A stretch of 64,000 nt of DNA from Blasia pusilla. Lineage: Eukaryota. Positions 14,710 to 51,678 of this stretch are shown here, piece after piece. Under the pieces are notes generated by a model. The model saw only the letters and a list, made by a program, of their open reading frames with translations. It did no database searches and had not been told where the DNA came from. Position numbers and translations under genes: made by a program. The stretch spans positions 18,848,001 to 18,912,000 of the forward strand of contig CM114271.1 in NCBI GenBank assembly GCA_050084515.1, read 5' to 3'. Position 1 is the first letter of the stretch. Each line of letters opens with the position of its first letter.

Positions 14710-15200
14710 CGTGCGCATACACATCGCTACACAACATACATCGTTGTCATCAAACACACACACAAACACGCACGATCCCATGCTAACTCATGACATCCAA
14801 ACAACGAGACAAGAAGTACCAAAATATCTCTAATAAAATAAGATCCAATCTCTCTCACAACACCATAGTTCTCACATGTGTGCACTCTCACATGTCTCTC
14901 CCAATGTCAAACCAAATCCACTCTCCTAATGAGAGGCTTGGGTTACACACACAAGGCAAGCAAGACCATAGTTTTGTCGCCTCATGCCAAGAGGTTCAAC
15001 AAAAGAAGAGAACGAGCTCTCAAGCTTTCTCTCCTTGAGGTATACCCCTCCCCTCTCCCAAGCTCTCTCCATGGTAACCTATGCTCCCAAGTCACCTCCT
15101 TGGCACTTGACCTCATGTAGGGGGTTAAGGGCCACTTACCAAAAATAGAAATTCAATCATATACTCAAAATGGTACTTACCTAAAATAGCAATTTCCTCA
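14710..15200. repeat. Dispersed repeat, probably LTR-derived; similar to 40120-40245 and 39095-39960
   Basis: Shared blocks ATCGCTACACAACATACAT, GTACCAAAATATCTC and ATGCCAAGAGGTTC. Confidence 0.6.
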
Positions 15201-15204
15201 ATAA

Positions 15205-18103
15205 CCGATGTAGAGTCCTACGACGTCTTGGTTGGTGGAGCAGTATTGTACACGATGGGGTTTTCCCTTGATTAATGGGAGGAATCAGCGTCTTGAGGAC
15301 CAAGATGGCAGTTCGGTGATGGATGACTTTATTCATTACCCGTTTGATTCACATGTGTGCTGATCAAGCGACGGCTAGAAGAGATGGCGACCTTAGCAAC
15401 ATTTAGCAATGCCATCACTAGGCCTAGTGATTTGATTGAGAGACATGTCCATGCAAAGGACACTCCCGTTCCTGAAATTTCTATGGAGAGGAGTGTCATG
15501 GTAGTCGCATCCACCCATGGAGGAGAGTTGCCGATTTGGGGCTCGATTGAGGAGTTACGACACTTAGCCACTGAGCATGTGCAGACCGCGTGGAGCGAGA
15601 TGTTCACACCAAAGCGTGACGGGTCAGAGGAACCCGAGGTAGCCAAAGTGCTACTATGACCCCTTTGGACATCACCCCGATTGTGTGGTGCATTCTAGAG
15701 GAGGGTATTTGCGTGCTGGATCTCTTTGGAGGGATCAACACTGGTTTAGGGATCAACATTGTTGTTTTGCAGGCTGCAGTGCGCATGGAGCAATACCTGT
15801 ACGTGGAGGTTGATGATGTTGCGAGGCGCGCTTCACTTCACTATGTGGTGTAGTTACGCCTCTTATTTCCTGCCTTGTTGACAGCGTCCGCCGTCCAGGG
15901 ATACCAGAGTTCTCTACCGAGGGACACTTCATTGTTGGGGGCACAGGACTTGGAGAGGGCAAGGACCATAGATTTGGTCATTACAGGTTGGCCGTGTCAG
16001 GGCCAATCGAGTGTTGGACGAGGTAGCGGGTTAGTTGAATCTCGGTCCAGGTTGTTTTGGGGGATAATGCGGATCTTGTGACATTTGCAGAAGCATCGGT
16101 CACGTTCTCCAGTATACATTCTAGAGAATATGCCTATCTTAGGAGATTCGAGGCCAGGGTGGTGACGAGTGCACATCAAGTGCATGCATGGATCATCTCA
16201 GCAATGTTTTTGGATGGAGCGAGTGTAGGTTCTAGAGCACACCACCCCCGTCTTTGGTGGACCAACTTGTTGCCACACAAGGTGTTGTGGAGGGTATATG
16301 CACGAGTGGAGCGCCCCTCCCGATTGTTGGTGGATTCCATATTGGATCCGGGCCGTTGATCACAAGTAGTGAGGCATGAAGATCGACCTCCGTTGACTGT
16401 GGTCAACAAGATTGGCATGCCACGGGCAACCTTCCCCACCTCTGTGAGTTTTTTTTGCTTCCTATGCATTCAATGATGCCGAGCGTGGCTTGGTTTGGGA
16501 TGACCAGGTACAACGATTGGTGGAGCCCAATGCCGATGAGCAAGAGTGAGCGATGGGATTTCCCGAGGAGTGACGTCAGTACCGTCACTATCAGAGGCAT
16601 CACGACGTCATGTCTTGGGTCAGGAGATGGACCTAAACTTCTTGACATGGATTTTCAGCTTAGGAGTGGCTGAGCAGCATCGTTTGAGATTGCGACAGAT
16701 TACAACTGTTGCGTTGGTGAGCCCCATGCCTACTGAGATGGTTGAGGCAGTGGCTGGGGGCGAGACTCGAGAAGATTGACATACCAGGGATGATCGGGAG
16801 AGACGCCTTTGGACTTCTTGGGATGTTTTGCAAGTACACTAGGATATGATAGCCACAACATCAAGCATGGTTATGGGTACTGCACGTGGAGGAGATCCGA
16901 TTTTACAATTGATTGTAGGGGAGCATTCGAGTTATGTTGTTCGAGACGGGGTTGCACCATAGCAACCACCGACATCCACACTAGAGATTCCTACCGTAGT
17001 CACGATGGAGACTTAGGAGCCAGATATATATGGGCCCTAAGTTGATAGGAGGAGAGCGACGCCAGATATATCAGTTCTTGAGGAGTTATAGGAGCTATTG
17101 TGCATTTAGCATGCATGATTTGGGTATGCTAAATGGTCCAGGGATCCGCATAGAATTATCGAGCGACACGCCGATCTTTCGACGACCCTACAGGTACAGT
17201 GACATGGAGAGGGCTCTCATTTAGAGTAGGAGCTAGGACTTGGTTGGAGCAAGACTAATGGAGATGTCGCATGGAGGGTATGCATCTCCCATTGTCATGC
17301 CCGCCAAGAAGGATATGCATGGCAACTCGACGGATAGGCGGATGTCGAGGCGGACAATTGATGTCTTACCGACATATCAATCGACAAACAAAGTCCGATA
17401 GGTATGCCATGCCCACTCCTGAGGAGATCTTTGATGCTATTGGGCATGCAAAGATCTTCAATTTGCTAGATCTTTAAGCCAGATACTATCAGCAGCTTAT
17501 CAGATAGGAGGACAGGCAGAAGACGGCATTTTGGGCATCCATCCTCACGGGAAGGATTGTTTATACCAGTGGCGGTTCTTACCATGTGGATTAAAGAATG
17601 CCCTGATTGAGTTTCAGAGGGTCATGGATAGGATCTTGGCAGATCTGGATTTTGCTAGGTGTTATATTGATGACATCTTAGTCTTTAGCGTCATGGTTGA
17701 GGAGCATGAGTGACATCTAGAGGAGGTGTTTTGACGATTGCAGTTAGATGGGCTGAAGCTACATCCAGGCAAGTGCAAGTTCTTATACAACCAGATTGAG
17801 TACCTGGGTCATACGATATATCCAAGGGATCTTAGTGTGCAATAGACAAAGATAGAGGCTATTTTACGCATTCCACGCCCTACAGATATGAGTCGAGTTC
17901 GTTCATTCTTGGGATTAACAAGCTTCTATCGACGGTACGTCAAGGGTTTTAGTTCAATTGCGAAGCCGCTAACCTTGCTGACCAAGGTGGATCAAGACTG
18001 GCACTGGGGGGATGAGCAAGAGAGAACATTTCAAGTGCTCAAGGATAGATTGACATCCGCGCCCACATTGAGGAGACCAATCAGGGGGCGTCCTTTCCAT
18101 TAG
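15205..18103 (+). mobile_element. Ty3/gypsy pol fragment: protease tail - C5 DNA methyltransferase - RT - start of RNase H; many stops
   Basis: ESYDVLVGGAVL (retropepsin C-terminal motif); PIFRRPYRYS, YAMPTPEEIFD, LPCGLKNA, CYIDDILVFS, KCKF, RSFLGLTSFYRRYVKGFS; truncated after RPF. Confidence 0.92.
15656..16670 (+). pseudogene. Cytosine-C5 DNA methyltransferase domain within gypsy pol
   Basis: Motifs in canonical order: I VLDLFGGI, II YLYVE, IV IDLVITGWPCQG (PCQ 15992-16000), V RSRLFW, VI YILENM (ENM 16124-16132), VIII AHHPRLWWTN, IX EPNADEQE*AMGFP, X RRHVLGQEMD. Confidence 0.9.
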
Positions 18104-18780
18104 AAAACCATTCTAATGGAATGAGCGAGGAATTATATAGGATTCCAAGTGAAGTCAGTTTGAGATGATCGATCCGTGTCCTTTTGTCAATCTCAACTCT
18201 TGGTTTTCATAACTGATTGAGGAGTGGCTCGGATGATTTTGACATATGCAATTTTGATCTAATCCGCAATATCTTTTCCTGACACAGATCTTGAATCTGT
18301 GACGTCCAAATTTGAATTTTGAAATGGATGCGAGTATTAGGTTAAGTAACGTAGATGTGCTGACATGGATCTAATCTGGTTTGCTAGTCAAACATCAAGT
18401 TTGTCATGAATGACAAGTATAAGTAGCAACGTTTTATGAGATAATTTTTTTGCTATCGATCTCTCTACACCGGAGGTGCAAAGTGCTTGCTTTGCAAGTG
18501 AGGAAAGAATGTGAGCGCCCGGTTTTTGATCTTTTGTAGGTCGACGCAGAAATACAATCGTGAGGTTCTTTTTTCCTCTCCTTCCGAATGCACCACTTCT
18601 GTTGTTGTTGATATGGTCTACGGTGGAGCTCAATAGGAGTTCATTCTGATGTCAATTGCGGCAAGATAGAAAATGCCTCTAAGGGGGTTTCAGATACTAT
18701 GACTTCCAAGCCTAAAGGAAGATCGTTTGTCAAGGTTTAGGGTAGAGAACGACATCTTTACCATGCTTGATTCAAAGTGT

Positions 18781-18843
18781 ATTCGGCGCGCAACGCGCCG
18801 AATGCCTTGGCATTGTATCCTGATATTCGTAAAGGATACAATG
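18781..18843. repeat. Two adjacent perfect hairpins
   Basis: ATTCGGCGCG-caa-CGCGCCGAAT (18781-18803) and CATTGTATCCT-N11-AGGATACAATG (18811-18843). Confidence 0.85.
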
Positions 18844-19029
18844 AGGTTCTAAAAATAAAAGGAGGTTCTAACATTCCTATTTCTCAAGTCATATAACTGA
18901 TTTGAAAATCCAATGCACTTGGCATATGAAGCGCACATCCAAACTAGTATCATGCCCATCCAAATAGCTCCTTAGAGGTCTCGATGAGTTCATTTTGGAC
19001 TCCATTTACGAGAAGTAAGGTGTAGTTTC

Positions 19030-20880
19030 TCGTTCTCATTTCTAGCACTGGAGGGAACAGTTCCATCGGTTTGATTCAGAAACTTTAGTTCTAAATGCCC
19101 TCATTTAGGGCTCCCTTATCATTTATGGAACCAAAATGGTAGTTTCGATTGATCCTCCTTCTCATTTCAAGAACTGGATCTTTACTTCCAATGGTGGGCA
19201 GTAAGGAAAGAGGCCGGTGATTTGATTTGGGAACTACAATTCCAAATGCCCCCGTTCGGGCTTAGGGTTAGTGTCAAGAACTGGAACCTGAGTTCCGATT
19301 GATCCTCCTTTTCATTTCGAGAACTGGATCTCTATTCTAATAGCGAGGAATCCGAGAAGGAGGTCCACAATCTCATTTGGGAACTACAATTCCGAAAGCA
19401 GCCGTTCGGGCTCAGTTGTCGATCTGGAATGAAAACATGAGTTCCAATTCATCCTCCTTCTCATTTGGAGAATTGGAACTAGAGTTCCGATGGTGAGGTA
19501 GTAAAGAACAAGGCCAGAGATTTGATCTAGGAGTTCTGAAAGCCCTCGTTTAGATGGGGACTCCCGTCTCTACACCCAGAACCTGAGTTCCGATTGATCC
19601 TTCTTCTCACTTTGATGGTGAGGCAGTAAGGAAAGAGGCCGGAAATTTGATTTGGGAACTACAGTTCCAAGAACCCTGGTTGAGGTAGGGACTCGCGTCT
19701 CTGGAACCGGAACCTGAGTTCCGATTGATCCTCCTTCTCATTTCGAGAACTGGAACTAGAGTTCCGATGGTGAGGTAGTAAGGAAAGAGGACGGTGATTT
19801 GATTTGGGAACTAAAGTCTTGAGAGCCCTGGTTTAGGTAGGGACTCCCGTCTCTGGAACTAAAACTTGAGTTCCGATTACTCTTCCTTCTAATTTCGAGA
19901 ACTGGATATAGAGTTCTGATCATGAGGAAGCGGGGAAGGAGGACGGGGAACTCATTTGGGAACTTAAGAGATGGACTCTCGTCTATGGAACCAGAACTTG
20001 AATTCTGATTCATCCTCCTTCTCATTTTGAGAAGTGGATCTCTCCGATGGTGTGGAAATCGGGAAGGAGGCCCTCAATATCAACTTGTGAAGTACAGCTC
20101 CGAACGCGCCCGTTCGGGCTAAATTGTCGTATTAGGAGCCTAAGTTCTGATTGATCTTGCTTCTCATTTGGAGAATGGGATCTCTAGTGCCGATAACGAG
20201 AAATCTAATAAGGAGGCCCGTGATCTCATTTGGGAACTACATTTCCGAAAGAAGCCGTATCCTAAACCCTAAACCCTAAACCCGTTCGGGCACAATTGTC
20301 GAGGCTGGAACCGGAACTTGAGTTCCAATTCATCCTCCTTTTTTTGAGAAGTAGATCTAGAGTTCCAATGGTGAGGTAGCAAGGGAAGAGGTCAAAATTT
20401 TCATTTGGAAACTATTGTTCCAAAAGCAGCGATTTGGGCTCAGTTGTCCTCTCTAGAACCGGAACCTGAGTTCCGATTGATCCTCCTTCTCAATTCGAGA
20501 ATTGGAACTAGAGTTCCGATGGTGAGGTAGTAAGAAAGCGGTTGGAAATTTGATTCGGGAACTACACTTCCGAAAGCAGCGGTTCGGGCCGGATGTCCTC
20601 TCTGAAACCGGAACGTGAGTTCCAATTGATCCTCCTTCTCATTTCGAGAACTAGAACTAGAGTTTTGATGGTAAGGTAGTAAGGAAATTGGATGGCGATT
20701 TGATTTGGGAACTACAGTTCCGAAAGCCCTTATTTAGGTGGGTGCTCACGTCTCTGGAACCAAAACTTGAGTCCCGATTGATCATCCTTATGATTTTGAG
20801 AACTGGATGATTCTAGAGTTCCGATGGTGAGGTAGGAAGGAAAGAGGCCAGCGATTTGATTTGGGAACTACAATTCCCAA
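19030..20880. repeat. Tandem array, ~12 units of ~150 bp
   Basis: TTCCGATTGATCCTCCTTCTCATTT recurs at ~19143, 19293, 19442, 19588, 19719, 19871, 20003, 20145, 20323, 20471, 20621 and 20772; several GGAAC-N4-GTTCC palindromes per unit. Confidence 0.92.
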
Positions 20881-21079
20881 ATTCTGACGCTTGGGTTTCT
20901 TCCTGACAGTGTATTACTTTCATTAAAGGGATTGGCTCGTGCCGTTTGGATAACAGAAATAACGGTTAGTATGTTAAGATCTACACCTGGGAACCACACA
21001 GATTATGATCTCCCATGTTCATTCAAGTATGTACTCGAGATCCTATTGCAAGCCGTCAAAAGCCTAACTTGGTAATGGT

Positions 21080-21350
21080 TCGAACGTAGTATCCCTTCAA
21101 ATGCTGAAACGGTCCGTTCAGACGCGGTATATATCGTTTCTGACGTAGTATCCTTTCCGACCTGGTAAGGATCCAGACGTATTATCCTCTCTGACGTTAT
21201 ACTGCTCCAGCCTTGTAGCCCTTCAAGTTTGCAAACGTGACACACATAGTAGCCCTTCAGGCTTGGAAACCCTTTAGACTTGGTACCCCTTGAGAAGGTA
21301 TCACGGCTTCTGATGTCGTGGCGATTCCAACGTAGTACCCCTTTGGCCTT
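21080..21350. repeat. Short degenerate repeats (ACGTAGTAYCC / GTAGCCCTTCA)
   Basis: Motifs at ~21084, 21143, 21214, 21249 and 21330. Confidence 0.55.
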
Positions 21351-22131
21351 GTGCTAAGTTGTTCGTACTGCGGACAAAGAACCAATCATGAAGAAATGCT
21401 ACGGTTCACTACTTCGTGTTTTGACTGGTAGAGGTTTGGAGGGAGTAATTCTGAAACTGCCCTACAAATGTACTCTATTGTAGCCACGGGAGCCTACATA
21501 GTTTTGGCGGGCGAATGTACGCTAGTATCTAATATGGAAGCTTGATTGAACCGCGGGGGTAGATTGGAACGTATATTAGGGTAAGGAATCTTGTAACACA
21601 ATCAGGCTGCTGTCAAATTTCCTCCTCTTTCGGACAGTGAGTTTCTAACCAAGGTGGACATCATCCTTGTTGGGCTCTGTCGGGTGTTAGGAACGTCATC
21701 ATTGTAAGTTTTAGTATCAATTCCTAGATTTGCGAGAGAAACAGAAGGACGATAGCTCATACATTTTTTTAATGAGGAGTTCGGATTGAATCCGGTGGTG
21801 TCAGTGGACCCCCTGGTTTCAAAATCTTTAACTCATTGAATTCCACCGTAGACTAGAGCAACAACTGCCACAGAGACTGAGTTTTGAAATTCTTGAGGTT
21901 GTGCAGATCTCCACTTTCCAATTCACCAAGGTTAGTTCACGTTTACATATGTTCCCACTAAATGGATTTATGATGAGTACTATATTGGTTGATTCTTGCC
22001 TATTGTGCATTAAGAAAAGGGTTTTCTCTCTTGTGTTTAATGCATTGCTTACGGATTCTTGTGTTATAGTTAAGTTTTTCGGTCTACTATCATGGTTAAG
22101 AAGCAGATTCTTACCCGGACAAAGATTCTAG

Positions 22132-24875
22132 GCGCTTTGATCCGCAACCGAAGAGTACCTTTCAATTTGAATTCCGTAAAACCAATTGTTTGGGCTTATG
22201 GGATAAACTTTAGAATATTGGTTGCGCAAGGGGTGTCCGAAATAAGACTTAATGTCAAACTTGCAGGGAAGGAGAGCCCAAATTTGGGTGGAATGCGCTT
22301 GATTGGGTGTAGCATTGTTGCTAGTGATACATTCTTGGTGTTGCACCTTTTAGACGTGGATAATGAAGAGAACTATCATGTGGATGTTACTCAATCCGTC
22401 GTAAACCAAGCCCAACTAAATTTGTGAGTTCAAACTCTTACCTCTGATGTCCAGGAGCTAGTGATGAGAGGTCATGTTTCATCAGACATGCAGGACGTTG
22501 GAAAATTTTTGAGAGAAGTGATTCGGGTAGCTACCAGGGTTGCTACCCCCGAGTTTGCATTACCATTGATGGTACAAGAAGAAAAAAAGGTAGTGCGCAT
22601 TGGGTTGGGGAAAGAGACGCTAAGTGCTCGTCTAGCAAAGGCTGATTGGGGAAAGAGGCAACTTCGTTTTCCTCGACTATTACAATAGACCCAACAAAAT
22701 TTCCGAGCTTGATGCAAGGGCGACATAGGAACTCGTCGAGTGTGTGAGGCCGACACAAGAGAGATTGTGGGAGCAGTTTAAGGATCTTTATATTCCGAAC
22801 TCTACTCTGAAAATCTTTCGATTAGATGTCAATGATTTCAAACTTGCTCCGCTTGACATCAAAGCGAGAGAGCTTCATCAGGAGCGAGTAAATGCCCTGA
22901 TGCATAGTCTCTTGGGGACTAGAAATGTCATGGCGAAAAATATAAATATATCTATTGTTTTTCCTTGTACATACGATATTGCAAGAGCATCTCATGAATA
23001 TCAAGGGGACCATTTACTAGTTTCCCCCTTAGAAGAGGAGAAAGTCGATGGGTACCTACATGATGGTACAAAAATCTACCGGTGGGCAATTTCTCGTCAG
23101 CATACAGCAGTAGCCTTCTCTAAACTTCATGAGGCGACCGAGGACGATTTTTTCCAAAGTCTCCCGTGTACAGTAGTTTGGGGAGAAGATTGTCCCGAAA
23201 CCGTCTTTGGTATTGCAACCTCTCCTCACTTCACAATGAAGTGGACGCATATGCCAACAAAGTGGAGACTCCAATAAGAATATAGATTGCCACTTATGGG
23301 GCCCACATGAGCAATATTGAGTTGGCAGCGATCAAGAAGACCAAGAAGAGGAAGATTGGAGAAGTGGTGGATTTCCTTGCATTCAGGATCGCTAATGCAG
23401 TACCATTCGAATCAAAATTTGAATTTTGTATTAGAACTTGAATTCTAATAGAACATTGACTACACATGCCATCTCTGTCTTTAATCAGTTTGAGGTGTTA
23501 TCATTGGTATTCTAATCAAACTTAAGTTCCATGGTTCCTAAAGACCATGACGAAGAGGCTAAACGCCCATTTTGATTCCAACCACAAGGAGATAAACACC
23601 TTCATCTACAATTGCTCTCCCGCGACATGGAATATATGGCATGTTGTCATGGTTGCCTACAAGGAAGGTAAACTCATGGCACGAGATGGTCTCGCGTACT
23701 CCAAGTACTGGCTGAGACATAAAACGAGTGTTGAGAAGAGGAGGCTCAAGAAGACCGACTTGAAACCGCTCCAAGGGCTTGACGAGGAGAATGTGATGCG
23801 AATCGCACAAGAACTCCTATAATTGAGGGTGCAATTGCGGCCAACATCTACTCGAAAAATATGAAATGAAAACTTGATGGACTTGAAATCCTATCACGAC
23901 AAATTGAAACGCGAAAAAGTGAATGCAGACTCCATCTACAAGTTCTTTTTCTCGGAGAGGGAGATCTCTGTTGGGAGAAGTTGCCGAGATTGCCATGAGA
24001 AGCTTATTTCGGATAAGGAATTCTGCGTCGATGATGCACAGATTCTCCTCGACATTCTGCTTGAGGAGAAGGTGTATTTGAAGAAGCATCTCTCCTTTGG
24101 TACGCAAGCCAAATTCGGTGTTCCTCTTGATGAATTTTGTAGAACGTTGTGAGATTTAATGCGATTGCAGAGGACCAAATGCCCAACGACTGACTTTCTT
24201 GTATCTATCCACAAGGAAGTCATTAGAAGTTTTGATACAACCTCACCCGGATTCTTTTGGAATCTTGTAAATTGGGCAGTAGAAGATGATGAGTGGGGTG
24301 TACTTTTTGACATAGTATTTATAAATATGATTAGTGCTTCAAATAATTATGAGTGGCTCAATGTGGAAGAATTCGGAGAATATTTTGACGAGGGATCTCA
24401 TCTCAATGCAAGCAAAAGATTACTGGTGTTCTTCGTTGAGATCGAAATACTCGGGAATTTTATAGTTGCATGCCAGAGAGCCTCCAATCTCTAGTTTAGA
24501 GTAATTCCTTGTACAATGAGATTTCCGATGACAGATCAAAAGAGATAGAGGATTCTGAGTGGAGGATGTCTCATGGTTGTTATAGCGGTATTTTTCAATG
24601 GTTTTGATAAGTCCAATCTAGACAAACAACTTGCCCTTGTAAACAGAGTACGTGGCGGAAAATTTCTTCCCACCTCCCTCAACAACACAAGAGATATGAT
24701 CAACGAGGAGTATAGATTCCTTCTGATTCTCGGAGAGAACGAGTTTCGAATGGGGGACTTGGTGGAGATTTTCTCTGGCTTGTCAAAGGTTGGAGCGCGG
24801 AAGAATGCCATTGTGGTAAATCTAGGTTCTTACGTACTAGCGACTCTAGTGGTGAGTTTCTCTTTTGGAACCTAA
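22132..24875 (+). pseudogene. Decayed, intron-containing gene of unknown function with a ParB/Srx-like segment and a possible methyltransferase-like segment
   Basis: Chain of plus-strand ORFs with protein-like composition separated by single stops or frameshifts and GT-AG sites; ARELHQERVNALMHSL...WAISRQHTAVA...LPCTVV; FDIVFIN...LLVFFV...NAIVVNLGS. Confidence 0.55.
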
Positions 24876-26849
24876 GTTTCGATCATGATTACATGCATTC
24901 AACGTAAGTTCTTATTGAAGACATGTACTAACTCCCGAGCTGGTATCGTTACAAGTTTTCGGCATCAATTTCCAAGAAATTTTTCCGCGAGAGGATGGGG
25001 CAACATTGTCGGACTTTTGCCTGATCAATTTGTCAAGATCGATGCAAACCATAGTCTTGTAAAGACTACTCCTGTAGTGAAGTCCAAACCAGACCGGAAG
25101 GTGGCACCTTCCGAAGGCAAAAAACAAGCGGATGCCTGGAATTGCAAAGGAGCAAAGGACACGAACATGGAAGCGGAGTCACAAGATAGTAACAAATCAG
25201 AAGTAAGCTCCCAAGATTTTGTGCCTTGAATCATGCCAAGCATTTGTTTCTCTTCGCACTGCTATTTGATTCAAGCAAGCCCATTACTGATTTTGGTTGG
25301 TTTATGGCTCAGGACGATGGAGTTGCGGAGAGGGATGAGGGTGATGGATCGGCTCCCCCAACTTTTGAAAGGGTGACATCGCTTGATATGTTGAATCCTC
25401 AAATTATAACAAGGGAGACTAGTCCTCTAGCTACTCGTGGTTTGGCAAGATATTCCGCCAGAAACTATCCCGATACTGTTGGGAGAAAATATCGTAAGTT
25501 CAATTTAAGAAGCTCGTTATGAAAAAACCTTATGCTTTTGAGTGGGACGATGACTGTTACATTTGTAATTCTAATCTAGGTATCCATTTACAAAGCAACC
25601 ATCTTCGATTGGTGGAAAATCACTTGGACTATCGACGCTCATTCCCGAGGGAGAGAAGGATGACGAAGTGCTGGAGAGCAGATCCAAGTCGACGCCATTA
25701 TCGAAAACACCAACTGCCGTGAGAAAATGAAAGGGAGGGATTGCTTCGGATGGGGAAGGAGATTCCGATGTCATTGGGCTTTCCTACTCCGCTGAGCAAC
25801 CCAATTATTTTTTCCTATTCTGATTTCAGTTTCCTAACTTCTTCTTGCACTCATGTAGAACTTAAGTTCTCATTATGTGGAGCATTTTGCCACTACACAG
25901 GGAGAAGAGGAGAGAGAGGGACTGCTTGGGATGGAAAAGCAGTCACCACCGTAATTGGAATCTCCTTTTAAGGTGAGCAATCTAATTAATATTTCATATT
26001 ATGTTTTCACTTTCCCTGCCTCTTCTTGCACTGATGTAGAAGTTAAGTTCTCATTATGTCGAACATTTTGCACTACATAGGGAGACGAGGAGAGCAAGGG
26101 AGTGGAAAAGTAGACTCCACACAAAGAAAAAGGGATTGAGGGACTTGAGGGTACGGAAAAGCTCATTTTAAGGTTATCGGCTTCTCCAAATCAGGTGAGC
26201 AACTAAAGTAGTGATTAACTCATCTAAAGTTCTCATTGCATTTAGGGTCTCCACACTTTGAATTCAAAAAAGAAGACCTCATATTTTGGTTTCATGCAAA
26301 AGTCACACGATGGAACGCATAGTAGGTCGTCGTTTAAGTGTTCAGCGGTTGGTGACTTGCAACTTAGAAAAGTAGTAAATACTATCCTCGTGAATGACTT
26401 AGCCACATCACTCAAAATATTAGATTTTGACGATTCTAGACGCAATTTAAAAATCAAATGTGTAAATTCACAAAAAAATGATACGTCTCAAGTTCCACCT
26501 TGAGCTCCAATGTCTACAAAGCCTGCGACTTCGACAAGAAGTACATCGCCGAAGAAAGCTTCTAGGCCACAATATGAAGGGAGAACGAACACTGATATAT
26601 CCGGGACATGTAGAGTCATCGCGCCAAAGGCTTCTCTGGGAAATGTGGATTGAGAAAAACACACGAAATGGATCCCACGTAGAATAGTATCAACGACAGT
26701 TGGAGACTCTAGTAGTTTGGACGCTTCTCCGGAAATTGTAGCCGTGAAACCTTCAAAGAAAAATAAACATAATAACCCATCCTCAGCACATGGAACATCT
26801 CTAGATAGTATAGGCCCGGGGACCAACATCGACTAGGGGACCTCGTCCT

Positions 26850-29800
26850 TGGTATGCCTTCAAGATTTCTCTAGCATACTTTTGCTGAGAGAGAAAAATA
26901 GAATTTGACTGTTGCCAAATCTCCAGCCCTATAAAGTACAACAAAAGACCTAAATCTAATATTTCAACACTCCCTTCATTTCCTCTATTTTCTTACTGTG
27001 GTCTCTTATGATGATCAGATCATCCACATACATGACTATCAACATATACATCCCATCTTCGCAAAACACATACAAATTTGCTTCTGACGGACTCTTGATG
27101 AAACCAATCTCTCGGAAGAATGTATCTATTCGGTGATACCATACCTTTGGGGCTTGCTTCAACCCATACAATGCTTGATGAAGTAAACACACTTTCTCTT
27201 ATGATCCTGGTGTTTCAAAACCTGGTGGTTGAGATACATACACCTCCTCCTTGAGACTCCTATTCAGAAAGGCAGACTTCACATCGTATTGGTATGCAGG
27301 CCAATGTCTTGTTCCTGCCACCGCTAGAAAAATTTGAATGGTTGTCATCCTTGCAGTAGGAGCAAAAGTCTCATAGTAGTCAAAACCTTTGATTTGTGAA
27401 CACCCTTGTGCAACCAACCTCACTTTGAATTTATCCAATGTACCGTCCGGCTTGTACTTAGTGTTTTACACCCACTTGGTGCATATTATCTTCCTGTTCT
27501 TTGGCTTCTCAACCAAAGTCCAAGTTTCATTTCTCTGAATAGCGTCCATCTCCATCTGCATGGCCTCTCTCCATTAAGGATGAGCAAGGGCCTCATCCAA
27601 GCATGATGGTTGTTCCACCTTCAAGACCTCTATCATCAAGGCCATGTTGACGAGATGTATTGAAGCTCTATTGTGCTCCTGTAGTCTCTTGGATCTCCTT
27701 GGATGTGTAACAACTTCATCAGTTGCTGAATCCTTGCCATGCAAGAGCTTCTTTATCCACTTAGGGTATGATGACCGTAGTGGAAGAGCAGGCTCCTCTT
27801 TGTAATCATCACCAAATTCTTCTTCTTGATGATCTAGTGTAAACATTGGTGGTGTGCTCTGGTGGGTTATCTCTTCGTTTAATGATAATATGGACGGACC
27901 ATTGATATTCGCCACTTGACGAGGTTGTTCTTGGAACACCACATCACGACTCACAAGCATCTTCTTTGCCTCACGACACCATAGACGATAAGCTTTAGAC
28001 TCATCACTATATCCCATAAAGATGCACTTCCTGCTCTTGGACTCTAGCTTGGTCCTGGATGCTTCAGGAATATGTACAAAGCACTCACTACCAAAAGTCT
28101 CAAAATGTTGGACTGATGGTACCTTACCTCAGTATGATTGATGAGGAGTCATGCCTTGCACTAACTTGGTAGCACTTCTATTTAGAATGTAAACGGTAGT
28201 ATTAACAGCTTCAGCCCAAAATCCTTCTATCAAACCTTTTGCTTTCATCATACATCTTGCCATCTCCACCACTAAATGGTTTCGATGCTTAACAACTCCA
28301 TTTTGTTATGGTGTATGTGCCGTGGTTAACTGTCGCTTGATTCCATGCTCCCCCAAATATTTGTTGAATTTTGTTAATAAAAATTCTCCTCCTCGATCGG
28401 TGCGAAGCTTCTATACCTTCTTTCCTATCTCATTCTCAACCAGCTTATGCCATACTTGAAATTTTCCAAGAGCACTTGCCTTATCACGAAGGAAATACAC
28501 CCACATCTTCCTACTATAATCGTCGACAACTAAAAAGAAGTACGAAGAACCACCTAATGCCACTGTTCTCATTTTACCATAGAGGTTAGCATGAATCAGC
28601 TCTAGAGGAGCCTTTGCTCTATTGCTGGACTCTTGTGGAAATGGTTGTCGGTGTTGCTTGCCCATCATACAAGCTTCACATGTATCTGACACTCCAAAAA
28701 TTGTTGTTAAATCAACAACCATGCCAGATTTATGCATATGACTTAGTAAGGGAAAGCTTAGGTGACCAAATCTTTCATGTCACAACTTATTGCTACTAAG
28801 ATCTATACCTACACTTGTCGTGAAAGCATACAACTTGTAGATATTTCCACGTCGTATATCTTCCGCCGACTACTTTTCCATTGACATCCTCAATGACTGC
28901 TCTAGTTTTCTTGAAACGAACTTCTAGGTCACGATCACATAATACTGAAATTGAAATCAAATTCCACTCTGGTACGTATAGTACATCAGTTAACTTCTTT
29001 TCATCTCCTTTTTTTGAGACTAAAGAAATTGTGCCTTTTCCTTCTATAGGGCACTTTGCATTCTTCCCAAAAATAACAATGATGGGCTCCTGTAGAGGTT
29101 GTAAGGAGCTATACCAATCCTTATGATTGGTCATATGCCTAGATGCTCCACTATCGAGCACCCATGCATCTTCACTCTTTGACTTAGTGGAATGATCTGC
29201 CTGTGTGCAAAACTCTTTGATTGCTATCCAAGCATCTACTTCATGTTCTCCTAGTTCTACAGAATTTACAGACTCCTTCTTAGATCTTAAACAACCGTTC
29301 TTCTCATCATGACTCCTCTTTCTACAATCTTTGATAAGATGACCTAGCTTACCACACTAAAAGCATTTGAAGCCTTTCCTTGGAAATTTCTTCATGACAT
29401 TTGAATTTTAATCCTGATTTCTACCTCTCTGTATGCTGGCAATAAATGCTACATCACTTCCCTCTCTTACTTTGAAGCGCATTTCCTCTTCTACCAACAT
29501 TGCACTAAATTGCTCAAAAGTAAGCAGCGTGGGTCTTACTTGAGTATTCAATGCAGTGACCAAACTGTCATACCTTGGAGGAAAAATCCTTATGCACCGA
29601 TGTGCCAAATCTTTGCTAGAGTTTGAAATTCCTACAGACACCATCTGATCTTGAAGATTCTTGATCCTTGTCAAAAATTGCTCCGCCCTTTCTCCTTCTG
29701 AAAATTTCTCGGACTTAAGTAGATTCTCCAGTCAGGGTAAAGACTCGGATTCAGAATCTCCTTAAGTCCGAGAATCTGAATCCGAGTCTCATTCCTCGTT

Positions 29801-30625
29801 TCAAACTCATTCTTCAAAATATTCCACGCCTCAACAGAAGTGGTCAATTGTTGAAAGAGAGTCATGACAAAATCAATTACATTTGTGACAATCGCACATA
29901 GACCATCAGCCTTTTTGCGTTTCCATGCCACCAATACAACAGGATCGATATCACCAGATGAAGATGAACATGCAGAACTCAAAGTAGCTTGTGGATTTGA
30001 ATCGACCCTTGTGGCCGTCTGCCAGATCTCAAATGATTCGAGGACACTTCTCATTTTGAACTTCTACAATATATAGTTAGACCCATCTAACTTCCCTTCA
30101 CCCAGTGGAGGAGGCGAGCTCGAACATCTCTCGAGATTTTGTGCAAACATACTAGATCGCCAAATACAAAATATTGGAACACCTACTGCTCTGATACCAT
30201 GTGAGAAAACAGAAAGTGAAAAAATCACTGAAATCTTTACAAAACTTAGAGATACAAAGTGGCCTAGTCCGTCAGTGGGCTCACAGAATAGCTTTGATGG
30301 AACCAAAACATGGAGATAACTCGACATATGAGAATACGCTACCGCTACGGCTCCCGACTATTTCACTTCTCAAAAAACTAGGATTTTTAACCTATTTTTC
30401 TTTTTTCTATCATTAGAAAAGCTATGCTAAGACCCCAAACCCCCGCGTCATCTTGGCATACCAGAGGTTGCGCCCCTGGACCCCCGCGATGTATCAGGGT
30501 GTCTTGCACCCTGATGCAATATAGGATTAGATAATCCTAGTAACGCCACCCCAGAAACCACCTATGTTATATTACTATGACTCTTTCGACGTCTAAGTCG
30601 GAACCATCAATCTAGGCTTCTCTCA
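26850..30625 (-). mobile_element. Ty1/copia element, decayed; 5' LTR 30200-30625, truncated inside RT (no RNase H or 3' LTR)
   Basis: PBS TGGTATCAGAGC (30188-30199, tRNA-Met type); gag, LDSGASRHM, CEACMMGKQHR, VDDYSRK, FKVRLVAQG, MYVDDLI, DLGLLLYFIGLEI. Confidence 0.92.
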
Positions 30626-31688
30626 TACAAGGGGGCCGATCATATTAATGGTGCTCAGAGAAGTGGATGTTGAGAATCCAACATGCAATAGTTAATGTAA
30701 TGTTACCAGTCCAAGAGTTGAGGACTTCTATTTTCATGTTGTGTTTCATTTTATCCAAAACCTTGCATCGCCTTTGTATTTCTGTATGATTCTTTGGATT
30801 TTGATGAAAGAAATGTCTAATGTAGACTCGTCCCAGATGTGGTAAAATCATGCTACTTTTTTAACCACATGAGGTCCTGCTTTTCTGCCTTGCTTATCGA
30901 AACTGTGGAAACTTGAAAAGTATTAGCATCAAACCAAGATATGGAAATTTTCTACACAACCAGTGATTACTTTGCTTTGAGCTTATGGACATGTAAGAAT
31001 GAAGATAGTTTGGCCAGAATGGAGGCTATAATTTTGGATCACTTACAAGAGAGGAATCTTCCCCCGATTGGGTTCACTTTGGTTTGTGCAAATGACAGTT
31101 CGCGTGGAGGTTAAGCGGCTCCATTCAAACTACTAAACTATTTTGACGAGGCAACAAGACGTTGGCTGGATTTGGACAGCCAGCAACAGATTTTGTCTTT
31201 TGACGTGGTCGGAAAGGAGAACCACCAAGATAGTATACAACATTTTTTTAAAGAGCCAAAATGGAAGGCATCATCGTCAAAAGATAGTTTTCTCATGACA
31301 GCGTTGACACGTTATGTCAAACTCTTGCGGCTCAGCATATCCAATGGCCACTTCTAGACTCCGTGGGAGTTCATCCGACAATGCAATTTGCCATCTTATT
31401 TTAGGAAGGTAATATGAATTTCTACCCATTGTGAACCAGTCTTAACCAATCTTACACTTGTAAATTTGGGATTGTTCATAATATTGAAGTGTTTCCCGCA
31501 GCCTGGTGATTACCGACACTACTATGAACCAAAGGAGCGTGCTACGAGTCAAATGTTGGACATCGACCTTCAAGCAGAAAGGTAAGCACTAGCACTGAGA
31601 TAGTTCAGAGAATGAATATTGCCTGATGGAACTATAGTTCTAATTCCCTCTTTGAGAGGCTAATATCTTGCATTGGTTGGTGGATAGG

Positions 31689-32246
31689 TGAAATCCCTTA
31701 GGCCTCTTCTTATCCTCAAAATCGACGGAATTATTTTCCGAATTGTGGACAGGGTTAGCAAACCGTATCCCCTTGGTCTTAGGGGAAAAAATGCCTTCAA
31801 GTTGGGAAGATGGACGGGTTATATTTTTCCTCCCCTACGTCAGAATACTAACTGACATGATAGAGAGAGAATATGATTATGGGTTTTGGACCACGATGAA
31901 TAAGGAAGATGCACTTGAAATGCTTGAGAGGCTAGCAGATTCATGCTATTTGTCTAAATCTTTCGTCAAGAAGGCCAATTTTTTTTGGTCTGTGCGGGAC
32001 TGCTATGTTCGAAAGGGGACAAAGGGTCTCTTGAAGTATGTGAAAGATCTACGGTTATTTTACGTTGTTAGAGAGTTTAGAAACTTGTCCTGCCTAAAGA
32101 ATACATTCTTGGTGGACATTGGGATTAATTCCCTCCTTTTGAATGATCCAAAGAGTGTTACAGCCCTTCCAAAATTTAATATACTTCTAGGACCCCAAGA
32201 CAAAAAAAACATTGCAAGGCCGGTACTATTCTCTCTTACCTTTTGA
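31689..32246 (+). pseudogene. FCP1/NIF (HAD-fold) phosphatase-like domain with degenerate catalytic motif
   Basis: After a TAG acceptor: RPLLILKIDGIIF (DxD position), frameshift, then FFLPYV, YDYGFWTT, FFWSVRDC, VKDLR, NTFLVD, NDP...LPKF. Confidence 0.65.
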
Positions 32247-32398
32247 TAATGAAAGAGAGTTTCCTAGATGGAATGAGTATTAGTCATTTTATTAATACTA
32301 GGCGGATTGGTTTTCCAAAGCCACATTCTACTGGCGGTAATGGTAAATGTCTTCTCCATGCAATCCAGGAAAAGATAAAGGCCTTGGTATTATTCTAG

Positions 32399-33454
32399 AA
32401 TATACCTGGACAGCTGATTTGCATAGTATGCAAGGAATGTCCAAGACTGGAGATCACCGCGGATGTCGTCTTCGGTGGCGTGGATCAGAATTCAGTGGAA
32501 GCTGCGAGGCCACTATACAATATCAATGCCTTGCTTACTTCCAAGTGGTGTTTGGAGTCTCCGATAGAGAAATACCTCCTAGCTAGAGTTCTCGACGGCA
32601 TCGTGAAGTTGGGGGCTCGCTTATACGTGAAGTGGGAGAATCAGTCTGGTTTTAAGGACGTCATTGATAAAAGCGGCTTCTTAGACCTGGAGTCCGTAGC
32701 AAGGTGGAGTCAGAAGGGTGGACCGTCATTCGGTGTCTATATTGATACCAACATGAGCTTTGTGGGTTATGTCTCCCTCCCTTATATTTATGACGTTTTC
32801 CCTTATAGTGTCATGCCAAATGAGAGCATGAACACTGTGTAGAATGAAGTGGTGCAGTACGAGGGAACGGAGAAGGTGTTTATCGTCACTCTACATGGCC
32901 ATCACTTTGTGCTAAGGGTTGCAGCCAAGTCGATCATCATTGTAGATATTCTAGGTTCTTGCCTGGACCGGGAATGTAGGAAGGCAAACCAAATCTTCTT
33001 TGACTCCAAGGTGTCTACTGTGGTGGATAACGTATTCGACTATTCCATCGAAGGGAATGATCCCCAACAACCACCGGAACTGTGCTTGTTGGTGAGCGGG
33101 CAAGAAGTTGCCCATTTTTTCCTTGACGAGTATGGCCTACACAAAATGAAGCATCGTCTTTTCGGCTACATCATTGCAAAGGCTAAGGACTAGGATGTGG
33201 ACCTACGTAGTTTGGACGAGGAGTATCATAAGAAGAATTATGATAAGTTCCAAGCTATCTACCAGACCTTGAAGGAAGATCTCCAAATTGATTTCACGAG
33301 GATTTTTGTGACTCCGAGGGAGGGAAGGTTTTGTTGGAGTAACTTTGCCGATGGACTCAAACAGTATATCTGTGAGGTTCAAGAGGAGATTACCGACCTT
33401 GCCACAGATGAGACACTCTTGCGATTGAGGAGGAATAGACCTCACCAAGGGTAA
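32399..33454 (+). pseudogene. Domain resembling the C-terminal (predicted papain-like) region of plant NT-C2 domain proteins
   Basis: One frame with stops at 32840 and 33191: VVFGGVDQNSVEAA, LDGIVKLGA, FLDLESV, SFVGYV, FIVTLHGHHFVLRV, IIVDILGSCLDRECRKANQIFFD. These parallel the recalled family motifs VFFASIDQRSERAA, HFDLETV, YIVSWNDHFFVLKV and IIDTLGERL. Confidence 0.6.
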
Positions 33455-33939
33455 TAGGTAGCTGAAATGATACTCTATTTTGATGCCATTGGGTACGTTT
33501 GTGATTAGAATGTGAAATGTAGCATATTGAAGCGGATAGATTAAGGAAGTATGTTGCCCAGGTTTGAGCGCGTCGATGTCACAGATATAGCAACGGATGA
33601 GAATCTCCTCCAATTGGAAATGTATTGTCATCAGTTGTAAATTCTCTGGTACTAGATATTTGTAGTCATGTGCAATAGGAATTATAACCTATTGTAAAGA
33701 ATGGAAGCTAAGATTGCAAGAACTGTAACATATTGCAGAAAGTGGAAGCTAAAGATTGTGAAGCCATGTGATTGTCGAGCATATTTTTTAATCAACCCGA
33801 ATTGGAACTTGAGTTCCAAATCTTATATATTCAATGATTATATTTACTGTCAGCTAATGATCATGCGATGGCCTTGTTAAGTGATATGTGTGTCAAGTTT
33901 CTTATTGTAGAGCTTGTATCCTCAACGTTGCCATCCTTT

Positions 33940-35420
33940 GGATCAATTGGAACTGTAGTTCCAATAAGCTTGCTCCTGAGATCCCTTCATCAGGAACAAT
34001 TGTAGAATCAAACCTTTGATCCTGATTGTGTCCCAAAATTCCGTGCCCGCTGAAAGTCATTTGGAGCCAAACTTGGACTCAGTCCAATTGGATCCTAAGA
34101 TCCAATTTTGGCCGCAAAAGGCGCGTGTTAAAGGGGAATCCCCATCCTTGATTGGAATTGTAGTTCCAAATGGCTTGCTCCTTGCATCCTAATAGGTTGG
34201 CAACAAGTGTAGAATCAGTACCTTAGTTCTGATTGTATCCAAGATTGCCGCGCCTCTTGAAGGTCATTTGGAGCCAAACTTAGTCGAAGTCCAATTGGAT
34301 CTTAAGATCCAATTTCGGCCACTGAAGGCATCCGGTAAAAGAAGATCCCCATCCTCTATTGGAACTGTAGTTCCCAATGGTCTGCTCCTTGCATCCCAAT
34401 AGTTCAGCAATAAGTGGGGAATCACAACCTTAATTCTGATTGTGTCCTACACTATCGCGCCTGTTGAAGGTCATTTGGAGCCAAACTTAGTCGGAGTCCA
34501 ATTGGATCCTAAGATCCAATTTCGGCCGCTAAAGGCGTCCGGTAAAAGAAAAATCCCCATCCTCTATTTGAACTGTAGTTTTGAATGGCTTGCTCCTTAC
34601 CTCCCAATAGGTAGGCGGATATTAGAGAATCGGAACCTTAGTTTTGATTGTGTCCCAGACTGCCGCGCCCGTTGAAGGTCATTTAGAGCGAAACTTAGTT
34701 GGAGTCCAATTGGATCCTAAGATCCCATTTCGGCTGTTGAAGGCGTCCGGTAAAAGAAAATCCCCATCCTTGATTGGAACTGAGTTCCGAATGGCTTGCT
34801 CCTTACCTCCCAATAGGTAGGCAAACATTGGAGAATTGGAACCTTAGTTCTGATTGTGTCCCAAATTGTCGCGCCCGCTGAAGGTCATTTGGAGCCAAAC
34901 TTAGTCGGAGTCCAAATTGGATCTTAAGATCCAATTCCGGGTGCACAAGGCGTCCGATAAAGAAAAATCCCAATCCTCGATTGGAAGTGTAGTTCCGAAT
35001 TGCCTGCTCCTTGCATCCCAATAGATTGGAAACAAATGTAGAAGCGGAACGTAAGTTCTGGTTGTCCAATTGGAATCGAAGATCCAATTCTTGCCCTAGA
35101 AGGCATCCGGTAATATTTAACCCCAATTTTCAATTCGAACTGTGGGTCCGAATGACCCGCTCCTTACATCCCAATAGATCGGCAACAAGTATAGAATCGG
35201 AACCATAGTTCTGATTGTGTCTTAAACTTCCGCGACCGCTGAATGTCATTTGGAGCCAAACTTAGTCTGAGTCAAATTGGATTTTAATATCCAATTCCGG
35301 CCGTAGAAGGCGTCCAATAAAGGGCAATCCCCATCCTTGGTTGGAATTGTACTTCCAGATGGCATGCTCCCAAGATCCCAATGGGTCGGCAACAAATGTA
35401 GTTCCAAGCTCATTTGGAAC
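33940..35420. repeat. Tandem array, ~7 units of ~207 bp
   Basis: CATTTGGAGCCAAACTT-like motif at ~34058, 34265, 34473, 34680, 34886 and 35247; contains GGAACTGTAGTTCC palindromes. Confidence 0.92.
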
Positions 35421-36196
35421 TAGAGTTATGATTTATTTTTCTTGGCACTCGGTGGGAGCTTCCTCGGGGCCGAACCAACACATTACACTATCAACTTCAG
35501 GGCTATCTCGATCGATAGAAATCAAATACTTCCGAGTTCATTTGGAACTAGAGTTCCAAACGCCATTCAATAACCTTCCCATGGAACAATAGTTCCAAAT
35601 ATCGTAGAAATTTCAGTAGGATGTATTCCAAAGCCCGAACAACTCCTTCAGCGGGAAGTAGTAGATCTATCAACAGTAGGACTTTACAGATTCTTGCCAA
35701 CTCGAGAGAAGTGGGTTTGGGGCGGAGGGTGGATGAGGCCAAGATTATTTGTTTCTATACTTGAGAATGCTTTGGAATTGTATCTTAAGCTCCGATTTGG
35801 CTTATGAACTCACAAACCTTGGCAAAGTCTGTATTCAATCGTCCGCCACCTCCTTTACTATGAAGTCGCGAAATAAATTAGTTTATGTTACAAATATTTC
35901 TTTGACGGGTGTACGAAAACATTAACCATATCACACGCTAGCCTTCGCTCTCCCAAGATGTCCAAAGAAACGAACAAAATAAACATTGTCAACATCATTC
36001 TCAACGTTTTAACTTCAAGATCATACTATATAGGTTGTCGACGACTAAAAGAGACTTGATTGATTGCAAAAGAACTTGAATATATGGTCATATTTAAATG
36101 GACTTAAGTCCTTATTTTACTTGTAAGCATGACTTCAAGAAAGTCGAAAACCGAGAAATATTTTAATTCACTAGGAATTCCAAAATTGGTATTATG

Positions 36197-36527
36197 CAAG
36201 GTTGCACGGAAACGGACATGCCCGACTTGCACCCGCACCCGAACCTGCCTTGGAGCCCGCTACCTAGACTCAGGCTGACTCCCGCACCCATTGCGTGGCC
36301 TGCAGGGCGGGTAGGCGCGAGCTTGGGGCGGGCTAGGCGTGCAGGAGTGGGCTCTAGGTTGATTGGGCACAGGCTCCGGGCGGATAGGCGCAGGCCTAGG
36401 GTGGGCCTTGAGCCCGCACCTAGGGCATGCCCCAGGCCGGGCTGCAGGCCACGCGAGCTCGAGTGCAAGCCCGCATGGACATGTCCGTCCATAGGACGGA
36501 CACAGACTTTGTTTGTGTGCAACCTTG
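36197..36527. mobile_element. hAT-type MITE
   Basis: Perfect 11-bp TIR CAAGGTTGCAC/GTGCAACCTTG; 8-bp flanks GTATTATG/CTAATATG (6 of 8 match). Confidence 0.85.
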
Positions 36528-37335
36528 CTAATATGCATAGGTGACAACCTCACGTCTTTGCTAAATGAACATTTCTTATTAGAAAGATTGTAAAACTGCC
36601 AACCTTTAGAACTTACACCAAAGTTTTAAATGCACACACTAGTTCGAAGAAAAAAGCTAAGAATAAGAGGGTATATCACTCATAATGACTATTACTAACT
36701 CACCAAGGAAGGATTATGTCTAATTATCTTCATCTCCAAATATTTCTTCCAAGTTTTAATGAGGAAATTTTTATATTTTGAGAATATTTTCACAGCAAGC
36801 AAGTGAGGCCTAAAGGATGGAAAAAATTCCTTGCCCATTTCTTATGAGGTTCCAACTAATTTTCTCAATCATGAGAATAATGCAATAAAGGAAAATGATA
36901 TAATTGTACATTCGCATGGGAAACAAATATTTCAGAAAGGCATACATTCTCTCTTATTTTCTTTGTTATATTTTTTTGAGTTGTAAGATGTCATATTACA
37001 CTGGCTAATCTCTTAAACACTAATCTTGTGTATCACTAAAGCTTATGTTCAACATATCATATCCTCTTCATTGATTTGCATTCAAACATACTTATATTAG
37101 CCATGTTTTTGGTCAATTGGCCTTGCATCTCTGGAGTGTGAGTCTCCAATCACCCCTTAAGCTTAACAATTATAAATAGGATTAGATACCAATCCAACCC
37201 TTCATTCCCCAACACACACAAGTCATTTAAGACTTGGGGACAAACTTCCTTGATAGTATAGGGATATAAAATGGGGTTAGTACATTTGATGGTCCTAAGT
37301 GCCTAATGGACTCAAACGAGTCTCTAAACCAAACT

Positions 37336-37337: not shown

Positions 37338-37394
<57 letters not shown>
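37338..37394. repeat. (AT)n microsatellite
   Basis: Seen directly. Confidence 0.98.
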
Positions 37395-37400: not shown

Positions 37401-37947
37401 TGAGGTTGCACAAAAATAGACAAGTTAATCAATGCATGGGAGAAACATATCCAGACAAGTCTCGACATGTCAAACAAGTTTCCCGCCCAGATTTTTGGCA
37501 TCTCAGTGGCCCGTGCGGGCTCGGGAAGCGAGAACGAGTGCGAGCTTATCAGGGCAAGATCAAACGGGTGTGTGGGATATGAGCCCTTGCTTGGCCCTCA
37601 TTGGGTGGGCTTAGGAGCCCACCCTATCCGACCCTTAGCCTACCTACCCGAACTTGAGCTTGGGCCTATCCTATCCAAGCTTGAGCCCTCCATGCGGGCT
37701 CTATTCAAGCCTAGCCACTAGTTTTGAGTCCACCCAACAGCGGCCCAACCCGCCCTAGGGACTGTTGCGGGTCATGTGCGTGCTTAATGCGGGCTACAAA
37801 ACGGCTACATATTGACCAAACCCCGGTCTACGCTACAAGCAAGGCGGGCATGGGGGCGGGCTGCGGGTACCCAAGCCCGCATGGACATGTTTGTTCTAGG
37901 GACAGATATAAGTCTACGGACACGGACTTTGTCCATGTGCAACATTG
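37401..37947. mobile_element. hAT-type MITE, degraded TIRs
   Basis: TGAGGTTGCAC...GTGCAACATTG; flanks TAGTGAAT/CCTTGAAT. Confidence 0.75.
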
Positions 37948-39240: not shown

Positions 39241-39279
<39 letters not shown>

Positions 39280-39648: not shown

Positions 39649-39803
<155 letters not shown>

Positions 39804-43490: not shown

Positions 43491-43529
43491 TGTATGGCGA
43501 TAAATATGCCCCTTTATTGGTTTATGACC

Positions 43530-45555: not shown

Positions 45556-45559
45556 CAAC

Positions 45560-46775: not shown

Positions 46776-47082
<307 letters not shown>

Positions 47083-51494: not shown

Positions 51495-51678
<184 letters not shown>

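Follow-up and report, generated by a model that had tools for sequence, protein, structure and literature searches.

What is the interval at about 18.1–36.5 kb of a 64,000-nt stretch of Blasia pusilla DNA (contig CM114271.1; hereafter the window, meaning the whole stretch analysed), in which two different tandem arrays rich in one palindrome enclose a series of broken reading frames? The first-pass annotation had described it as a large mobile element of unclassified type. The units of the two arrays are unrelated outside their palindromes, and two kinds of palindromic site are common to both. Plus-strand coding relics with no known domain lie between the arrays, and all of these parts occur at similar abundance in copies that have diverged from the window. 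We infer from these observations, with a probability of roughly 0.4, that the interval may be an old copy, now decayed, of one middle-repetitive element that bore orphan genes. This element would have been mobile, is unclassified but probably of class II, and would have carried its sites as targets of an element-encoded dimeric protein, in an architecture resembling that of CACTA transposons.

Palindromic sites in two unrelated arrays

The two arrays and the features within and beside them are the following (Tandem Repeats Finder is abbreviated TRF).

19126–20900, plus strand: left array (TRF, unit anchoring, read depth 36–108)
20261–20283, plus strand: insertion of (CCCTAAA) x3, plant-type telomere-like, in only 1 of the 12 left-array units
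33802–33819, no strand: outlying perfect palindrome TTGGAACTTGAGTTCCAA, upstream of the right array (motif scan)
33946–35470, plus strand: right array (TRF, anchored units, read depth 62–83)
35541–35597, no strand: two outlying palindromes downstream of the right array, at 35541–35560 and 35582–35597 (motif scan)

Anchored on a conserved word, the left array resolves into 12 units of about 150 bp over 19126–20900; TRF reports it in three rows (19141–19477, 19614–19968 and 20305–20881) with periods of 149–152. The right array gives a single TRF row at 33946–35065 (period 207, 5.4 copies) and, with its degenerate units, reaches about 35470, making 7–8 units of 207 bp. Both counts agree with those first proposed, about 12 units of 150 bp and about seven of 207 bp. 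The length of the left array varies among copies: contig joints, here and below the best supported among those listed, skip 277–1509 bp within it.

Exact matches to GGAACNNNNGTTCC (GGAAC-N4-GTTCC) number 15 in the 64 kb, compared with 0.05 expected, and none of 100 shuffles reached 15. Ten lie in 19283–20721, five in 33804–35596 and none elsewhere, so that every exact site falls in or beside an array, which bears out the earlier description of both arrays as rich in this 14-bp palindrome. When one mismatch was allowed, 30 matches were found (1.8 expected), of which the left array contains 17 and the right array, with its immediate surroundings, 10; two fall in the frames between and one outside at 54101.

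Each left unit has three sites of the GGAAC-N4-GTTCC type, with the spacers CTGA, TAGA and TACA. Each right unit has three palindromes of 20–22 bp with the form AATNGGAWC-N4-GWTCCNATT and perfect arms of up to 9 bp, including the perfect AATTGGATCYTAAGATCCAATT. In the third of these, TTGGATC/GATCCAA stands in place of the core TTGGAAC/GTTCCAA, a matched change in both arms, and the symmetry itself has therefore been kept. Two right units taken as single-stranded DNA fold with z = -5.85, and none of 100 shuffles folds equally well.

The consensus units of the two arrays share two site types. The first, a site followed by GATTG, matches directly over 24 bp (21/24, score 33), and the second matches in inverted orientation over 17 bp (16/17, score 29), its spacer being TACA in left units and TGTA in right units; the top score among 200 shuffles was 26, below both. 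The proposal that left and right sites are reverse complements of each other holds for one of these types, as GGAACTACAGTTCC (19655 and 20708) is the reverse complement of GGAACTGTAGTTCC (33949 and 34361), and not for the other, which is direct. For five of the motif strings, a literature search returned no paper. A metagenome scan with a 19-nt array word returned four loci that have only 21–23 nt in common with the window, as chance would give.

A 31-nt inverted repeat (84% identity; 18604–18634 and 21835–21865) brackets the left array and its flanks. A nested transposable element (TE) bounded by this repeat was considered and rejected, no matching target-site duplication (TSD) being seen by eye.

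Coding relics, abundance and extent

Between and around the arrays lie the following features, in which LTR stands for long terminal repeat, RT for reverse transcriptase and MITE for miniature inverted-repeat TE.

18100–19125, no strand: left flank, at the same depth as the element, containing a GC-rich hairpin at 18783–18806 (depth, compared with 2331 in 17500–18133)
21832–25522, plus strand: coding-relic region A, at least 1100 codons, broken by stops and frameshifts (stop depletion, translations)
25721–26104, plus strand: internal tandem duplication (two units of about 181 bp, 77% identical) that lacks the palindrome and lies a short way left of the copia junction (self-BLAST)
26961–30683, minus strand: nested Ty1/copia, truncated, with the rest of RT, RNase H and the 3' LTR missing; not of the element family (Pfam, tblastn, read depth)
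31115–33454, plus strand: coding-relic region B, about 600 codons or more, in frames 2/0/2 (stop depletion)
32843–33193, plus strand: 116-codon frame with the order His..Asp..Gln..Cys as in CE-clan cysteine proteases of the Ulp1/adenain kind (residue order by eye)
35598–36197, no strand: right flank, at similar depth, up to a MITE insertion at 36198–36528 (depth in the last two bins)

The plus-strand coding relics are real. Within 23500–25300, frame 0 has eight stops in about 600 codons, compared with 16–42 in the other five frames, and within 32500–33100 frame 2 has one stop compared with 8–13 in the others. Translations of adjoining plus-strand frames connect across single stops and frameshifts. 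The window has T at 22425, in the stop that ends at 22427; G stands there in 55 of 58 family reads, and the ancestral family sequence therefore read through at this point. Introns, which had been claimed together with the relics, are plausible as read by eye, one example being an AT-rich stretch of 126 nt, in frame and bounded by GT..AG, at about 23400–23525.

Regions A and B gave no relevant match in Pfam, searched with 14 + 15 + 112 = 141 reading frames from both strands, nor in PHROGs or NCBIfam, where only noise appeared (E about 0.02–0.05). Three word-indexed searches of 5.8 billion proteins with a 182-aa frame (set against longer proteins), region A and region B (the regions read through with X) found no homologue. 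A full phmmer search of 1.84 billion representatives with frame 31692–32246 returned one match, a low-complexity, bacterial-looking tandem-repeat protein with a common 'YDxGFWTTM'; we judged it spurious. PDB sequence searches with frames of regions A and B gave no meaningful match, and no second copy came to light when the frames were compared by tblastx with the remainder of the window. Two AlphaFold2 (AF2) single-sequence models were uninformative, with mean confidence scores (pLDDT) of 32.8 and 32.2. The idea by eye that frame 22729–23277 is ParB-like found no support in Pfam, PDB or Atlas, where its matches were unnamed clusters.

A CE-clan protease identity of frame 32843–33193 is a weak lead only. 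Its Atlas matches (0.79–0.84) are giant-virus hypothetical proteins and clusters of Herpes_teg_N, Peptidase_C48 (0.79) and Peptidase_C5, all below the reliability level of 0.9 and in a range reached by shuffled proteins about a third of the time. The frame has no Pfam match even at E <= 10, and its AF2 model is the one with a pLDDT of 32.8.

In agreement with the earlier annotation, the 141 frames contain no Pfam match to a transposase, Rep/helicase or recombinase domain. As a control for sensitivity, the decayed copia, gypsy and hAT relics of the same window match Pfam at 1e-9 to 1e-30. Because these decayed relics still match, a standard transposase, RepHel or integrase would probably have been seen.

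Reads and contigs were placed on the interval 17500–36500 at >=80% likeness. These were about 2 Gb of raw whole-genome sequencing (WGS) reads (about 1/100 of the run), an RNA run and two contig sets of low coverage, all under the same species label. Summed WGS depth was 36–108 in all 22 bins outside copia and gypsy, 320–710 in the copia and 2331 over the gypsy RT. By part, it was 40–55 in the left flank (bins 18134–19401), 36–108 in the left array, 38–57 in region A, 37–68 in region B, 62–83 in the right array, and 83 and then 36.5 in the right flank; both contig sets show the same pattern. The possibility that arrays and frames occur independently, raised at the outset, is opposed by their equal abundance in these three read and contig sets. 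Array depth is at most 2.4-fold above that of the frames, and the arrays are therefore not independent satellites.

Among the 32,942 placed reads, 86 were >=99% alike to the window and 19,104 were <90% alike, the commonest differences being C>T and G>A. We infer from these reads that the family is old, methylated and multi-copy and that the interval is one of its diverged members. The family is estimated at about 60 or more copy equivalents at >=80% identity, because unit coverage is at most about 0.7–0.8 if all of the >=99% reads came from this locus. The proposed large mobile element is thus partly supported: a diverged multi-copy family is what such an element predicts, but neither terminal inverted repeats (TIRs) nor a TSD was found at this locus.

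The positions 18780 and 35600, first taken as the ends, are not ends, because depth is unchanged out to 18134 and 36500 and a contig from another copy spans 18556–18920. The left end would lie between 18100 and 18556 or has been lost in a rearrangement; the right end would lie beyond 36197 or is undefined. We estimate the extent as at least 18.1–36.5 kb, about 14.7 kb without the nested copia. No inverted match was found between 18090–19130 and the right side. A Helitron reading of the hairpin at 18783–18806 was rejected, as no CTRR follows it, the other copy runs across it and there is no Helitron_like_N or PIF1 match.

The nested copia and neighbouring repeats

The coding relics are interrupted by a minus-strand copia, as had been reported. 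Its Pfam matches, also on the minus strand, are gag, Pol_BBD, integrase, SH3 and RVT_2. The outer LTR edge lies at 30683, read and contig loose ends lie at 26961 and 30683, and protein homology stops at 26965, which corresponds to residue 482 of 786 of the window's other copia (tblastn). The breakpoint is thus at 26960/26961 and not at about 26850, where loss of the 3' half had first been placed. The copia is cut off there, and a deletion therefore did occur; that a mobility gene of the element was lost in it is possible.

A gypsy RT fragment occupies 17373–18099. Its RT/RNase H frame breaks off at 18099/18100, and 1079 gypsy reads diverge after 18099, continuing with gypsy-family RNase H. About 1.1 kb upstream of this fragment and on the same strand, a cytosine-5 DNA methyltransferase relic (15620–16300, plus strand) has motifs I (LDLFGG), IV (GWPCQG) and VI (ILENM) and a later GFPEE in one frame, with matches to DNA_methylase in Pfam (8.9e-7) and to 3g7u in the PDB (0.0055). 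The relic may derive from a host gene that was captured or became a pseudogene, or from a methyltransferase borne by a retroelement; to our knowledge, methyltransferase-carrying retroelements have been reported only in algae.

On the other side, a hAT-like transposase relic (43898–45909, minus strand) has a DUF659 match (5e-24) and a DAWTN motif, with Transpos_assoc (9e-5; 45550–45909) upstream. It is interrupted by a gypsy (RT 42782–43508, integrase 41640–41828) and a GC-rich MITE. The relic has its own 86-bp direct repeats (46435–46520 and 46646–46731) and no GGAAC palindromes, and is therefore a different element. GC-rich MITE-like copies with the termini GCAAGGTTGCAC...GTGCAACCTTGC lie at 36196–36530, 37403–37950, 14040–14425, about 45240–45540 and about 41230–41540.

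A direct, rearranged repeat of about 72–74% identity occurs on both sides of the element, at 14706–15180 and at 39085–39960 plus 40118–40248. It is probably one more dispersed repeat, too diverged to represent LTRs of the element. An inverted duplication of about 950 bp (77%; 6650–7597 and 11746–10806) adjoins three long plus-strand frames (9117–11999) that by eye resemble the RT of long interspersed nuclear elements. Near-perfect and unusually long dinucleotide microsatellites are present at 46777–47081 ((GT)152), 39653–39800 ((CT)74), 51493–51677 ((GA)92) and 37338–37394 ((AT)28). Rfam and tRNA scans of the entire window gave no match. With a GC content of about 0.31–0.53 and with copia, gypsy, hAT-like relics and MITEs, the window looks like part of a large, TE-dense genome of plant type.

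Competing explanations and likeness to known systems

In the reading that we favour, a single class II element, at least two long plus-strand proteins of no recognised family would once have been encoded. The non-coding regions flanking the genes would have been built up by tandem duplication into two unrelated arrays, which reiterate the same two kinds of 17–24-bp palindromic site with the core TTGGAAC-N4-GTTCCAA. An element-encoded dimeric protein may have bound these array sites, much as TNPA acts on CACTA repeats or VANC on the motif arrays of VANDAL elements; TNPA dimers bind the reiterated, stem-loop-forming subterminal repeats of CACTA (En/Spm) transposons. The catalytic gene of such a transposon would either be missing from this copy or be of an unrecognised type.

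Several observations weigh against this reading. Site orientation is mixed: the TACA-spacer site occurs seven times on the left and its complement TGTA four times on the right, that is, inverted, and the GATTG type is direct on both sides. Overall mirror symmetry as in terminal inverted structures is absent between the arrays. Within this copy, conservation is not significantly higher in the palindrome columns than in the remaining columns of the units (left array, p = 0.23; right array, p = 0.08), and two left units as single-stranded DNA show no significant fold (z = -1.44). Sequence of the same depth continues for at least 0.6–1 kb outside each array. No single read or contig joins an array to a frame, the listed pieces being <=450 nt, so that equal depth is indirect evidence of linkage. 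Self-comparisons of the window revealed no TIR, LTR, TSD, empty site or second copy, no transposase of any kind was found in the element frames, and no CACTA/TAGTG termini were seen by reading near either array, the true ends not having been located. The frames appear to have no homologue in the databases searched. In the one RNA run, depth is <=0.62 over all 22 element bins and 91 over the gypsy RT, and this sample gives no indication of current activity; a sequencing-run search listed no RNA run. This copy is dead: it has decayed, has been interrupted and is almost without expression in that run.

The strongest alternative, although we consider it unlikely, is an ordinary CACTA (En/Spm) element in deleted, non-autonomous form, in which the arrays would be asymmetric subterminal repeats, the frames TnpA- or ORF2-like and the Tnp2 gene lost beside the copia. 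The size is in the range of the 20.5-kb soybean Tgmt*, and an excerpt of its description states that CACTA DNA-binding proteins are poorly conserved (PMC2613891). The motifs are reiterated, direct and inverted, able to form stem-loops and unequal between the sides, and the copia truncation at 26960/61 shows a deletion. However, no CACTA...TAGTG termini were found near either array, and Transposase_21, Transpos_assoc, DUF4218 and Transposase_24 have no Pfam match in the 141 element frames. The window's only Transpos_assoc match (45550–45909, minus strand) lies about 10 kb away, beside the different repeats of the hAT-like relic and without GGAAC palindromes. Region A, with at least 1100 codons, is far above the size of a TnpA-like exon set. 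Sequence of the same depth runs on for 0.6–1 kb beyond both arrays, which therefore do not appear to be terminal in the manner of CACTA subterminal repeats.

That the interval is a mosaic of separate old repeats of similar abundance (two satellite-like arrays with orphan genes or TE pieces), or a segmentally duplicated block, seems to us quite improbable. The lack of any piece joining array and frame would fit such a mosaic, as would the threefold range in depth among bins (36–108) and the dense TE mosaic of the window in general; flank depth is similar as well, so that the whole area could be moderately repeated. All 22 bins nevertheless fall within 36–108, whereas neighbouring TEs differ 10–60 fold, and array depth exceeds frame depth by a factor of 2.4 at most, which argues against independent satellites. 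Moreover, sites of 17–24 bp are common to both arrays and occur nowhere else in the window.

VANDAL elements lack TIRs, and VANB-type proteins carry a Ulp1 domain. A TIR-less Mutator-like element (MULE) of VANDAL type would make the arrays VANC-like target motifs and one frame a VANB-like Ulp1 protein, a MURA-like transposase having been deleted; we give this little credence. The protease lead at 32843–33193 and the lack of any TIR found here are in its favour, but the lead is below the Atlas reliability level, and the element frames have no Pfam match to MULE, the SWIM zinc finger, DUF1985 or Peptidase_C48. In VANDAL21, VANC motifs build up as dynamic tandem repeats in introns and in the regions upstream of genes (PMC5735166), which also accords with this explanation.

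Large plant retroelements can carry extra frames and arrays in their untranslated regions, and the interval could in principle come from the interior of a non-autonomous LTR retroelement of large size, or of another class I element, whose LTRs lie outside it, a reading with very little to recommend it. The weak direct repeats of about 73% at 14706–15180 and 39085–39960/40118–40248 would be candidate LTRs, but their divergence is too great and they lack collinearity. No RT, integrase, gag or protease belongs to the element itself, RT and integrase occurring only in the nested copia and the flanking gypsy; the adjoining gypsy RT is about 50-fold deeper and breaks off at 18099, and introns, if present, would not be typical of a retroelement. 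An endogenous viral element in many copies, resembling giant viruses or Polintons, is highly improbable: the frames are orphans and the top Atlas matches of frame 32843–33193 are giant-virus hypothetical proteins and Polinton-group Ulp1/C5 protease clusters (0.79–0.84), but shuffled proteins reach such scores about a third of the time, Pfam found no polymerase, integrase, capsid or packaging ATPase domain in the element frames, and viral-contig scans gave one 17-residue match judged to be chance and otherwise nothing.

A bolder form of the favoured single-element reading appears doubtful to us. The interval might represent an undescribed lineage of large plant DNA elements with no recognisable transposase, Rep or recombinase and with two or more long orphan proteins, of which one could be a cysteine protease of the CE clan; the cis signals of this lineage would be arrays of 20–22-bp palindromes read as symmetric duplex or as hairpins. 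If the interval is a single mobile unit, it is a plant element of the 15-kb class with unusually clear cis signals and with proteins that have no match among about 2–6 billion sequences searched. A new transposition or anti-silencing protein, together with the site that it binds, could then be sought here in a tractable system. Should full copies prove to be ordinary CACTA elements or MULEs, the value of the element would lie only in illustrating well how arrays of binding sites evolve through tandem duplication.

Membership in CACTA or VANDAL fails on every testable defining feature, namely TIRs and transposase, and our tentative claim, held at the same level as the favoured reading, is only that the element may have worked like them. 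Non-autonomous Helitron and Helentron elements with satellite-like arrays are dispersed and have internal tandem arrays and palindromic hairpins; the present family resembles them in these respects, but has no RepHel gene and has long orphan frames.

The soybean CACTA Tgmt*, as an excerpt describes it, is 20.5 kb long and has 4 subterminal repeats on the left and 24 on the right, forming 2 and 12 stem-loops, its motifs being the supposed targets of an element-encoded DNA-binding protein of low conservation (PMC2613891). In contrast to CACTA, no CACTA TIRs, 3-bp TSD or Tnp2 transposase were detected in the present element, whose true ends are not located, and its long, regular arrays of 150/207-bp units extend over 1.5–1.8 kb and lie at least 0.6–1 kb inside sequence of the same depth instead of abutting a TIR. 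It is like Tgmt*, within the same excerpt, in its large size, in direct and inverted reiteration of stem-loop motifs and in the inequality of its sides; poor conservation of the binding protein and intron-containing genes, plausible here, are features of CACTA (PMC2613891).

In VANDAL21, the target motifs of the anti-silencing protein VANC accumulate, according to the excerpt on that system, as fast-changing tandem repeats upstream of genes and in introns (PMC5735166). The present element differs in that no MURA-like transposase or VAN-gene domain was detected in it and in that its motifs are palindromes of 17–22 bp, not short asymmetric words like those of the VANDAL21 excerpt. The two are nevertheless alike in that short motifs, here putative protein targets, have been multiplied as tandem repeats in the non-coding parts flanking the genes (PMC5735166, excerpt).

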